A DNA stretch of 64,000 nucleotides from positions 3,879-67,878 of the forward strand of contig VGZX01000004.1 of the NCBI GenBank assembly GCA_016872415.1. The letters run 5' to 3'. Each line of letters opens with the position of its first letter. Position 1 is the first letter of the stretch. Positions 2,413-6,629 of the stretch are shown here, piece by piece. The stretch is from SAR202 cluster bacterium. GTDB lineage: Bacteria; Chloroflexota; Dehalococcoidia; Lucifugimonadales; Australimonadaceae. The translations under genes were made by a program, and so were the position numbers. Under the pieces are notes generated by a model that was not told the DNA's origin, ran no database searches, and saw only the letters and a program-made list of their open reading frames with translations.

Positions 2413-4453
2413 GCGGGCGCTCCCCTTTCGATGCGATCGCGGCGACCTCTTGCGTCGCCATCAGTTTCTTCACTTCCACCATCTCGTCGCGGAGCAGCGC
2501 CGCCTTCTCGAACTCCAGGTTCTTGGCGGCGGCGCGCATTTGTTTGTCCAGGTCGGCCGCCAGCTTCGCGAGGTCCACCTTCGAGAGGTCGCGGCGCACC
2601 GCGTACTCGGCTTTCGGTTCGGCGGCCTCGCGCACGCGCTCCGTGATGTCGTGCACGGCCTTCACGATGCCCTCCGGCTTGATGCCGTGCGCCTCGTTGT
2701 AGGCGCTCTGGATCGCGCGGCGCCGCGTCGTTTCGTCCATCGCGGAGCGCATGGAATCGGTGACGCGGTCGGCGTACATGATGACTTGGCCGTTCACATG
2801 CCGCGCCGCCCGGCCCATCGTCTGGATGAGCGACGGGGTCGAACGGAGGTAGCCTTCCTTGTCGGCGTCAAGGATGGCGACGAGGCTGACCTCGGGTAGG
2901 TCGAGGCCCTCACGGAGGAGGTTGATGCCGACGACGACGTCGTAGATGCCGAGTCGCAAGTCGCGCAGAATCTCGATGCGCTGCAGCGTGTCGACCTCGG
3001 AGTGCAGATAGTGCACCTTGACGTTCATCTCCCGCAGGTAGTCGGCCAGCTCCTCCGCCATGCGTTTCGTCAGCGTCGTCACGAGAGAACGTTCGCCGCG
3101 CCGCACGCGCAGGTTAATCTGCTCGAGCAGGTCGTCGATCTGTCCTTTGGTCGGTTTAACTTCAATCGTTGGGTCGACCAGGCCCGTTGGGCGGATCACC
3201 TGCTCGACCACTTGCTGGCTCTGCTGCATCTCATAGGGCCCCGGCGTGGCCGACACGAAGACCACCTGATTCACGCGGCGCTCGAACTCCTCGAAGCTCA
3301 ACGGGCGGTTGTCGCGCGCGGAGGGGAGCCGCCAGCCGTAGTCGATGAGCTGGTCCTTGCGCGACATCTCGCCGTGGAACATGGCGCGGAGTTGCGGCAC
3401 GCCCATGTGCGATTCGTCGATGAACATGAGGTAGTCGTCGGGGAAGTAGTCGAGCAGCGTCCACGGCGCGCTGCCGCGCGGGCGGCGGCCAATGGGCTGC
3501 GAGTAGTTTTCGATGCCGGCGCAGTAGCCGGTTTCCTTCAGCATCTCCAGGTCATACTTCACGCGGTGCTCGAGGCGCTGCGCTTCCAGCAGCTTGTTGT
3601 GCTGGCGGAACCACTCGATGCGCTCCCGCAGCTCGTCCTCGATGTCGACGACGGCCGCGTCGAGCTTGTCTTTCGACGTGACGAAGTGCTTGGCCGGGTA
3701 GATGTCGATGCGGTCACGCTCGGCGATCAGCTCGCCGGTGAGCGGGTCGAGCACGACGATGCGCTCCACCTCGTCACCGAAGAACTGGATGCGGACGGCG
3801 TGATCGTCGTAGGCGGGCAAAATCTCCAGCGTGTCGCCACGGATGCGGAACTTCGTGCGGGCAAGGTCGTAATCGTTCCGCTCGTACTGCATTTCGATCA
3901 GGCGGCGCACCATCTTGTTACGGTTCTTGCGCTCGCCTTTCCGCACCGTTTCGACGAAGTTGAAGTATTCCGACGGCGAGCCCAAGCCGTAGATGCAGGA
4001 GACCGAGGCAACGACGAGGGTGTCGCGGCGCGTCATCAGCGCGCGCGTGGAGGCGTGGCGCAGTTTGTCGATCTCGTCGTTGATGTCCGCTTCCTTTTCG
4101 ATGTAGGTGTCGGTGCTGGGAACGTACGCCTCCGGCTGGTAGTAGTCGTAGTACGAGACGAAGTATTCGACGGCGTTGTTCGGAAAGAACTCGCGGAACT
4201 CCGTCGCCAGCTGCGCGGCGAGTGTCTTGTTCGGCGCGATCACCAAGGTGGGCTTTTGTATCGCCTCCACCACCTTGGCCATGGTGTAGGTCTTGCCGGA
4301 GCCGGTCACGCCGAGCAGCGTTTGGGCGCGCATGCCAGCGCGCACGCCATCCGCCAGCTTGTGGATCGCCTGCGGCTGGTCGCCGCGCGGCTCGAAGTCG
4401 GAGACGACTTTGAACGGCACGCCTTCGTCGGTGCGTTGAATCGATAGTGTCAT
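2393..4453 (-). CDS. uvrB: Excinuclease ABC subunit B
   Basis: [33 protein letters not shown] and C-terminal FEKAALLRD. Confidence 0.98.
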
Positions 4454-4770
4454 GGCTGCTCTCCCAGCATGCACCGCAAGAGGGCGCGGATCCGCGGCGT
4501 CTCGCGAAGGGCCTCAGCGAACCGGTCGATCGCTTCCTTGTTCACCATCATGGGGCCACGGCCGAAGCGCGGGCCATGGTAGTAGCAAAACCGCAGCGCC
4601 TCGGCGCCGTCGTCGTAGCGCAGCAGTTGAATCGTGGGCTCATGCCAAGGCGTCGGCTTCGCTGCCTCCTCGACGATTTGGCCGGCGCCCCACGGCATCG
4701 CGAAGGGGCGCGGCACGGGGCGCGAAGCTGTCGCGGGCTCGGCTACGGGCTTGCTCATCCGCTTGACCAT
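4450..4770 (-). CDS. Hypothetical protein coupled to uvrB
   Basis: GGAGGTG SD upstream, protein-like composition, stop overlaps the uvrB start (ATGA). Confidence 0.7.
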
Positions 4771-4851: not shown

Positions 4852-5628
4852 TCAAACGGCCCGGCGCGCCAGCCACACCATGTCATCGCTGTGGGGCCGC
4901 AGCGGGCCGCCCTTGAAGTCGCCGTGGACCGCCTCCGGCGCGAACCCGGATAGGCGGAGCAGGTGCTCCATCTCGAAGCGGAACGTGTAGCGCACGTCGA
5001 ACTCGTGGTGCAGGCGCCGCGAGACCTTGCCGCCGGGCCGCACCTCGCGGAGATCGACCCGGACGTGGTTGACCTGGGCCAGGTGGTCCCACCGATTGCG
5101 TCCGTGGATCGACCAGTAGCGACCGCCGCGCCCCTGCCGCACGTCGCGCAGGTGAAAGGGCGAAGTGTCCTCGTCGGCGAGCATCGAGATGTCCGGGTTG
5201 AAGAGGTCGAACGCGAGCAGGCCTCCCGGCGCGAGGTGCTCCGCGGCCGTCTGGAGCGCTGCGAACTGATCCTCGACCATGAGCATCGATTGGAATGAGC
5301 GGAAGGGCATGACAGCCAGCGCGAACCGCCGGTCGAGGCGCATCGTCCGCATGTCGTCGACGCGCAGGTGAATGCGGGAGCCGTATGGCGATGCGTCCGC
5401 TTTCCGCCTCGCGACGTCGAGCATCCTTGGCGACGCGTCGATGCCGGTGACGTCGGCGCCGGCCGCCGCCATTCGCAGCGTGACGCGGCCCGTTCCGCAG
5501 CCCAACTCCAGCACGGGGCCATGCGCCTCCGAGGCCAGGCGCGTGTAGAACGGCAGGTCGTGCTTCAGGTATGCGTAAACCTCGTCGTAGGTCTCTGCCC
5601 ATGCGTCGAACCATTGCGCCGGTTGCAC
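4852..5628 (-). CDS. Class I SAM-dependent methyltransferase
   Basis: VLELGCGTGR motif I, GIDAS, LAPGG. Confidence 0.9.
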   Translation of the reverse strand: MQPAQWFDAWAETYDEVYAYLKHDLPFYTRLASEAHGPVLELGCGTGRVTLRMAAAGADVTGIDASPRMLDVARRKADASPYGSRIHLRVDDMRTMRLDRRFALAVMPFRSFQSMLMVEDQFAALQTAAEHLAPGGLLAFDLFNPDISMLADEDTSPFHLRDVRQGRGGRYWSIHGRNRWDHLAQVNHVRVDLREVRPGGKVSRRLHHEFDVRYTFRFEMEHLLRLSGFAPEAVHGDFKGGPLRPHSDDMVWLARRAV

Positions 5629-6032: not shown

Positions 6033-6070
6033 GAAAAATGAACAGGGGAGAGAGCGAGCTCCCTCCCCTG
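6033..6070 (-). terminator. Intrinsic terminator after the small ORF
   Basis: Minus-strand stem CAGGGGAGGGAG-ctcg-CTCTCTCCCCTG (one G-U pair, possible only on this strand) followed by TTCATTTTT. Confidence 0.8.
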
Positions 6071-6098
6071 CCATCATCTTACCGCGGACACCAGCCGA

Positions 6099-6155
6099 TT
6101 ACTTCTTGCCAGGCTTGGCGGCGGGCTTGGCGGCGGGCTTGCCAGCGCTCTTCAT
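6099..6155 (-). CDS. 18-aa Lys/Ala/Pro micropeptide MKSAGKPAAKPAAKPGKK
   Basis: AAAGGAGG SD 9 nt upstream of ATG, TAA stop, terminator immediately downstream; below the ORF-track size cutoff. Confidence 0.7.
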   Translation of the reverse strand: MKSAGKPAAKPAAKPGKK

Positions 6156-6629
6156 TGTCCGTGCCCTCCTTTCATCGGATGCTGGTGGACAATCATTCGG
6201 GCCTGCCGTGTCATCGACCATGACCGACGAGACGCAGCCTTCGGCGCGTTTGGCCCTATCAGGTAATGTCGTTGGTTGCGCGAAGCCGGAGCCGCTGCGC
6301 GAACGCTCGCGGCCGGTTTGGCGGTGAGGGGGCCGGTGTTTGGAATCGACGTGTGAGGGATCGTGGCTATTGAACCCAGTGTCCGCACAGCGATCCGAAC
6401 GATGTCGTGTCTCTCGATAGGCTCGGCATCGTGGCTTAGGGCCACTGGCTGGCTATCTTTGAAACGTCGTGACGACGGCGCGTACATGCTGAAAGGCACG
6501 ACCTAAGAGTGTGTTGAAACTAGTGAAGATTAGATCATTCCTTTCACGTCACGTCAACGGAGAAACAGGCCTGTTGCCGGGCGATTTCAGTGGAGTTTCG
6601 CGAGTTGCCGTCCGAGGCCCCACGCGCTC

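Follow-up and report, generated by a model that had tools for sequence, protein, structure and literature searches.

Lysine- and proline-rich micropeptide genes with predicted nucleic-acid-binding products in a SAR202 cluster bacterium and its relatives

An 18-codon frame in the DNA analysed here, a 64,000-nucleotide stretch from a SAR202 cluster bacterium (the window), is very probably a real micro-gene. It belongs to what appears, from sequence comparisons, to be a real and overlooked gene family, whose most distinctive features are its tandem arrays and a candidate regulator–operator pair, and for which nucleic-acid binding is predicted. In our preferred reading, to which we assign a probability of roughly 0.6, this member of a multicopy family probably undergoes high-level translation, and its product, an unstructured polycation of 18 residues (+6), would bind to the backbone phosphates of DNA or RNA regardless of sequence, much like a histone H1 tail or a polyamine. 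A hidden micro-gene at this position had been proposed in a first-pass annotation; the proposal is upheld by a paralogue, a family of relatives and silent-only variation, and because of these we regard the micro-gene as real and likely translated.

Anatomy of the micropeptide gene

The frame occupies a 700-nt gap between ruvA (7232–6630), its upstream neighbour, for which no conserved partnership is seen, and a DUF2934 gene (5930–5631); these genes and all other window features described here lie on the minus strand. A Shine-Dalgarno (SD) site, AAAGGAGG (6165–6172), is separated by a 9-nt spacer (6164–6156) from the ATG at 6155 of the peptide gene, MKSAGKPAAKPAAKPGKK (6099–6155), which ends with TAA at 6099. 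The 18-residue product has a net charge of +6, contains two KPAA units and consists to 89% of Lys, Pro, Ala and Gly. An intrinsic terminator follows (6034–6079), comprising a hairpin at 6072–6041 with 14 pairs, eight of them G–C (folding energy −28.9 kcal/mol, pair probabilities 0.8–1.0), and a T5 run at 6038–6034. Terminators are called on the minus strand only, as three overlapping calls that represent one hairpin, compared with a shuffle mean of 1.3. The SD site, spacer, 18-codon frame and strand-specific terminator reported in the first-pass annotation are all confirmed from the sequence. The 18-mer is too short for a profile scan, and a 40-residue frame begun at an upstream in-frame ATG gives no Pfam hit. 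The locus is recovered at ≥99% identity from a second lake-water study.

A putative sigma-70-like promoter, read by eye, is located at 6529–6557, with TTGACG at 6557–6552, a 17-nt spacer, TCTAAT at 6534–6529 and an extended −10 TG at 6537–6536. It was missed by our consensus scan, which requires the second base of the −10 element to be A. A comparable TTGAC-16/17-(TG)-TAnnnn arrangement is found upstream of several relatives in the family. We infer that transcription starts from this promoter and, after a 5′ leader of ∼350 nt (6173–6522), ends at the terminator, giving a transcript of ∼490 nt.

Downstream, the 99-residue product of the DUF2934 gene matches PF11154 (E 4.5e-11; 42.6 bits, cut-off 22), and the gene has an AGGAGG of its own; its C-terminal tail is basic, disordered and rich in Ala, Pro, Arg and Lys, as had been noted before. 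The second gene downstream of the peptide encodes a class I SAM methyltransferase (4852–5628), with no demonstrated link to it, and the 106-residue frame between that gene and a uvrB-like gene (4450–4770) has no Pfam hit.

A second copy in the source genome

A paralogue is present on contig C6 of the same genome (39782–39832, or 1496–1546 of the extracted locus L004). It consists of GAAAGGAGG, an identical 9-nt spacing, the 16-residue peptide MKKSAGKPAAKPGKKK and a terminator. It shares 32 identical nucleotides with the window gene (E 2.5e-9), and the flanks are unrelated. The copy has a divergent winged-helix gene on one side and, on the other, a convergent gene that, from its translation, we take to be pyruvate phosphate dikinase-like; a glutamine synthetase-like gene is nearby. 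The first-pass annotation mentions neither this paralogue nor the long leader, nor the family's link to a winged-helix regulator.

A genome-wide scan for AGGAGG followed by ATG finds 232 starts, 35 of which open frames of at most 45 residues, the C6 paralogue among them. With a loose composition filter there are three matches in the genome, of which one forms the C terminus of a longer gene, and two in the reversed genome, so that by itself this filter cannot tell true genes from chance matches. A match to the window locus on contig C31 of genome G008 proved to be a longer frame's C-terminal tail and was discarded. A long frame on the minus strand of source contig C21, near offset 17180, ends in a histone-H1-like KKATAKAP/KPAA tail.

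A family of micropeptide genes in the same order

Our curated family comprises 26 genes in 18 units from 16 genomes of the same order and encodes 19 distinct peptides. These are 10–36 residues long, carry net charges of +4 to +10 and, without exception, end in Lys or Arg. Their composition (Lys 32%, Pro 21%, Ala 21%, Gly 8%, acidic residues 0.4%, all of it Glu, and Phe 0.2%) is partly built in, as the family filter demanded richness in Lys, Pro, Ala and Gly. The PAAK/KPAA repeat, initially regarded as the defining unit, does not have that role: KPAA occurs in 6 of the 19 distinct peptides and is absent from 13. What the family shares is lysine, proline, small residues and the near-absence of acidic ones. 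A hairpin with a T run follows the last gene in all 18 units (−12.9 to −37.8 kcal/mol), and a strong one follows none of the eight internal copies.

The distribution under strict patterns is patchy. Relatives are found in three of 57 genomes of the source's taxonomic family, the source genome included, and nine of 401 genomes of the order match, against three in a reversed control; seven of the nine contain true short frames and two are out of frame. A peptide HMM run on 301 genomes finds 41 genomes at E up to 1 and contributed one new gene (L044) among 30 loci inspected, and is too insensitive as a family search. Synteny with the winged-helix regulator contributed six further genomes. Left out of the count were L014, L016 and L020 (out of frame), L243 (Arg-rich, with a poor SD site), and L138 and a frame on source contig C2, which are ends of longer genes. 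A phylum-wide SD-ATG-KK-stop pattern proved too loose, with matches in 101 of 251 genomes that were mostly out of frame and one doubtful hit among 30 loci inspected from the matches listed. Pattern matching in metagenomes yielded 19 loci, none of them an orthologue of the window locus, and the viral scan five loci and no micro-genes. The expected synteny downstream of ruvA was not borne out: apart from the repeat itself the locus is unmatched in 40 relatives, and 56 genomes of the taxonomic family give no real match to the leader.

Nine family relatives of at least 20 residues were looked up in a collection of 15 billion proteins, for which the window 18-mer is below the minimum length. None is present, which agrees with the earlier suggestion that such genes are missed by gene callers. 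Two metagenome contigs of phage-like appearance (L210 and L211) carry a 26-residue lysine-rich frame as one of several small basic ORFs.

Tandem copies and selection on the peptide

Three genomes of one genus (L172, L174 and L178, at about 2290–2570) each contain three tandem genes of 13–14 codons, ∼105 nt apart, with an SD site for every copy and a single terminator after the last. Eight 13-codon copies all encode MAKQPSKPAPKKK; six codon columns vary among them and every change is silent, compared with the 22 of 108 random single changes (20%) expected to be silent in such a gene. The ninth copy, a 14-residue variant, was excluded from this count. In the 40 nt past their stop codons the three L172 copies are 23–33% identical. 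The tandem copies therefore conserve the protein, not the codons or the flanks.

A less favourable case is the orthologous pair of G008 and G022, which differs by one silent and four replacement changes in 31 codons; the amino-acid identity of these peptides is 87%, compared with 88% for the adjoining NurA. At four-fold sites, 15 of 16 are unchanged, against 74% in NurA, and the silent sites of this gene are therefore held as well. For the window gene itself, a soil contig (X4) is identical over the 78 nt of SD site and ORF and has eight differences in the 86 nt upstream; the hand-computed P is about 0.005, but selecting this run through shared words will have favoured conserved parts.

The leader, its fold and an overlapping frame

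Contigs from soil, sludge and sediment match parts of 6173–6503 with 81–96% identity. The X4, X5 and X6 contigs, which have depths under 5 and share several differences between runs, cover 6095–6258, 6123–6273, 6387–6503 and 6189–6425, with 8, 12, 22 and 10 differences. The 3′ half of the leader possibly has a conserved fold. Among the 28 listed leader variants one compensatory pair is found (6226/6207). In the 3′ part, 1–3 of 19 variants break predicted pairs where 4.5–6.6 are expected (permutation P 0.02–0.07, with the split chosen after viewing the data); in the 5′ part five of nine do so, and all 28 taken together are not significant. The predicted fold is no better than those of shuffled sequences, either for the leader (z −0.76) or for the whole unit (z −1.30), and Rfam 15 covariance models give no match in 6033–6560 at E up to 5. 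In the global fold, positions 6509–6491 at the leader's 5′ end are predicted to pair with the SD/start region (6169–6148), and in the local fold with 6415–6404, alternatives that could constitute a translation switch.

The leader also contains a 115-codon frame (6152–6499), a doubtful gene, whose stop codon overlaps the ATG of the peptide gene. Half of the 28 variants are silent in this frame (14, where 8.7 are expected; P 0.03). Its GC3 is 0.63, compared with 0.86–0.91 in the neighbouring genes, it has no SD site, no homologue was found for it, and it is absent from the 15-billion-protein collection. By eye, 6 of 11 further residues are altered in the unaligned end of the X4 contig. On balance we lean slightly towards a structured leader; a coding frame is rather improbable, and a leader that is neither structured nor coding is less likely again.

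Other leaders in the family differ in character. The 137-nt leader of G008 and G022 (L006, 1375–1512, and L005) is about 93% identical by eye, compared with 74% at neutral sites, and is a candidate new RNA element with no Rfam match. Predicted folds are better than shuffles in G008 (z −2.7), G206 (z −3.8) and G186 (z −2.3), and structured leaders are also seen in L015 and L199. No Rfam model reaches threshold in the leaders of nine related loci. The leaders of five family members have no common sequence above shuffle level, with one borderline pair, and several family genes have nearly no leader.

A winged-helix regulator, a palindrome and a ∼110-residue protein

A MarR-like winged-helix gene (PF12802) is back to back with 10 of the 18 peptide units, some of which were found through regulator synteny; among units found without using neighbours the figure is 4 of 11, the C6 copy included. 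The window copy has no such arrangement. The regulator gene has 133 matches in 120 of 251 genomes of the order. Peptides are found at 7 of the 30 best regulator loci and at 1 of 40 further picked ones (70 inspected in total), and we conclude from these figures that most copies of the regulator are without them. Named homologues of the regulator are labelled Chloroflexi.

An 18-bp palindrome, CAYG-N10-CRTG, was first spotted by eye in these same loci. Of the 71 regions lying upstream of the regulator, 15 contain it, compared with 0.6 in shuffles, and nearly always with a spacing of 10. It is present in 6 of 9 peptide-bearing regions against 9 of 62 others, lies at divergent promoters upstream of the winged-helix gene (for example in L017, L044, L172, L175, L176, L199 and L240), and overlaps the promoter in several. 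We regard it as a candidate operator of the winged-helix regulator. The window and C6 promoters have no exact copy, their best matches having one and two mismatches, respectively; because of these mismatches, and because exact copies of the motif number 313 genome-wide, we claim no operator at either locus.

A third component is an uncharacterised family of ∼110-residue proteins found in 20 of the 251 genomes (for example L173, 1978–2319, and L276, 404–733). Its gene stands between the regulator and the peptides in four loci, and between the regulator and a DUF2934 gene in L173. In view of L173, the one locus of this kind, the DUF2934 neighbour in the window may belong to the same module. Searches with the ∼110-residue protein gave nothing convincing in Pfam, nothing in NCBIfam (one member scanned) and nothing in the ESM Atlas. 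Its predicted model (pLDDT 80) has no Foldseek match at E 0.001 and a best VIA Z of 4.8, and no function is suggested by the fold. In one case (L290) the protein is fused to a receiver-like domain. Contig C17 of the source genome encodes a weak homologue (E 0.002) with a one-mismatch palindrome.

These observations can be combined in a speculative model that we consider doubtful, in which a regulon of gene-encoded polyamines operates in Dehalococcoidia-like bacteria. A winged-helix repressor acting at CAYG-N10-CRTG would switch on dose-multiplied Lys/Pro peptides of 10–36 residues, together with the ∼110-residue protein and DUF2934, so that the chromosome or the ribosomes could be condensed or shielded when needed, as in stress or dormancy. 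If true, no smaller nucleoid or RNA-packing proteins would be known, and they would have a dedicated regulator.

Comparison with known basic proteins

Polyamines and protamine-like small basic peptides are small flexible polycations. The micropeptides, with charges of +4 to +10, are so too, but they are gene-encoded, and lysine- rather than arginine-based, and the source genome keeps a spermidine synthase. Mycobacterial HupB has been likened to proteins with KPAA/PAAK tails. The premise that KPAA repeats are DNA-binding units finds support for AlgP, whose KPAA-repeat peptides bind DNA in vitro (PMC9239181). The window peptide shares the motif with AlgP and PhaF, in two exact units, but whereas those proteins combine a folded N-terminal domain with 9–25 or more repeats, it has no such domain and two repeats. 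KPAA is missing from most of its family, and a polyphosphate kinase was not found in the source genome.

Hc2 and other H1-like proteins (PF07382, NF038052 and NF038053) are likewise basic, rich in Lys, Ala and Pro, almost devoid of acidic and aromatic residues, and without a folded domain. They are about 200 residues long (profiles of 194–201; about 150–240 residues with many repeats), in contrast to the 10–36 residues of the micropeptides, which differ further in being often tandem and adjoining a winged-helix regulator. The 41-residue product of a tandem relative (L102) has HC2 as its best Pfam match (E 5e-6), at 27.2 bits against a cut-off of 40, and the best relative reaches 17 bits against the NCBIfam cut-offs of 80 and 135 for NF038052 and NF038053. 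By score, length and architecture the family lies outside the Hc2, AlgP and PhaF families. By analogy, its members are nevertheless likely to work like the tail of histone H1, Hc2, AlgP or PhaF.

Proposed function and alternative explanations

Transcription from the promoter at 6557–6529 would run through the leader to the terminator. Output would be high, given the strong SD sites, the multiplied copies and the preference for AAG (138 of 152 Lys codons in the family). The peptide, an unstructured polycation, would make electrostatic contact with the DNA or RNA backbone and thereby neutralise or compact the nucleoid, RNA or ribosomes. Repression by the winged-helix regulator is suggested for the relatives. 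Charge, flexibility and a basic C-terminus are kept rather than any one motif, which fits electrostatic binding of low specificity, and strong SD sites in multiplied genes are what one would expect of a product that the cell requires in large amounts. With two KPAA units, compared with the longer tails of PhaF and AlgP, affinity should be low unless the peptide is abundant. A role as substitute for missing HU or polyamines was rejected, since the source genome has both HU and spermidine synthase; the peptide would supplement them, and no obvious gap is filled.

Alternatively, the peptide could modulate translation by selective RNA binding, as a minimal version of the PhaF C-terminal domain that targets ribosomes or particular leaders, its own perhaps among them. 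In PhaF, the KPAA tail alone binds chosen mRNAs upstream of the SD site through its lysines and activates translation (PMC12818456), and the window gene does have a long conserved leader whose 5′ end can pair with the SD site in the predicted global fold. We consider this unlikely, as PhaF has 9–22 KPAA units where the window peptide has two and most of the family none, and as the five leaders compared have little in common and several genes have hardly any leader. Somewhat less probable still is that the transcript is the working molecule, a structured or dual-function RNA of ∼490 nt in which the short frame helps to load ribosomes or to stabilise the RNA. Such a role would explain the leader conserved in three environmental relatives with its compensatory pair, the conserved G008/G022 leader, the favourable folds of G008, G206 and G186, and the unusually fixed silent sites within frames. 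It sits poorly with tandem copies that keep the protein and not codons or flanks, with a window leader and unit that fold like shuffles, with a structure test that is not significant over all 28 variants, and with the lack of an Rfam match.

In trpL-type attenuators, a short ORF precedes a terminator and a co-oriented gene. The window has this order, and translation of a cis-acting leader peptide might then control read-through into DUF2934; the match, however, is limited to the window locus. A convergent gene follows the C6 copy, downstream genes vary among loci with no conserved operon, the terminator is stable in both predicted folds with no competing helix, and two or three tandem copies can precede a single terminator, all of which make this very unlikely. 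Equally improbable is a precursor of a modified or exported cationic peptide, such as one for lysine methylation or antimicrobial use. A gene for a CxxCxxCC protein (PF03692) lies directly upstream (20–50 nt) of the micro-gene in L011 and L012, which come from two families, and the SAM methyltransferase is two genes downstream in the window. The conserved modifying enzyme or exporter of RiPP precursors is not seen, however: with neighbours read mostly from ORF lists, no enzyme or exporter is common to the 18 units, PF03692 being found in just these two; the peptides have no hydrophobic or signal segment, and members of 10–13 residues have no leader/core layout. AlgP-like binding to polyphosphate granules, suggested by the dependence of granule spacing on the AlgP KPAA tail (PMC9239181), is marginally less probable again, because neither PPK1 (PF02503) nor PPK2 (PF03976) was found in the 93%-complete genome; the controls were positive in 7 and 8 of 14 genomes. 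That GC-rich repeated DNA contains this frame by chance might be argued from the reversed-genome matches and from the two out-of-frame cases among nine pattern-positive genomes, but against the paralogue, the common anatomy of the family and the silent-only variation it can be virtually dismissed.

Trypsin shreds lysine-rich peptides, and genes of 10–36 codons fall below normal gene calling. If the nucleic-acid-binding polycation we favour is correct, an abundant chromatin or RNA-binding component could escape both annotation and proteomics. The family offers handles that are seldom available, in its identical tandem peptides with silent-only change, its candidate regulator and operator, and its synthesisable lengths. 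It makes testable whether bacteria use free H1-tail-like peptides, and how many KPAA-type units the binding of DNA or RNA requires, a question raised in PMC9239181 and PMC12818456.

Occurrence beyond the order

A search of the literature, mostly open and at the level of abstracts, found no paper on free-standing Lys/Pro micropeptide genes in bacteria. The GMSC catalogue takes in ORFs of 30 nt or more (PMC11364881) and may contain these frames.

Named Chloroflexota and Dehalococcoidia records carry such peptides. A scan of named genomes, covering 42 of 64 parts of the collection, gave 120 loci, of which 95 are in frame and 22 have closed frames of at most 60 residues; most other in-frame matches are H1-like tails of long proteins. 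Chloroflexota account for five of the 22, and these were kept out of the 26 family genes since the collections overlap; five others are Burkholderiales frames of 42–54 residues, and four were rejected or set aside. The other eight seem free-standing: one from Clostridia (L076), two from Woesearchaeota (L097 and L126), one each from a 'delta proteobacterium' (L102) and Babeliales (L111), and L135, L142 and L169. Such micro-genes may have arisen more than once; the length of the peptides precludes proof of homology. Tandem pairs of H1-like micro-genes are present in the 'delta proteobacterium' MAG (L102, 1216–1450) and in the Babeliales MAG (L111, 1214–1397).
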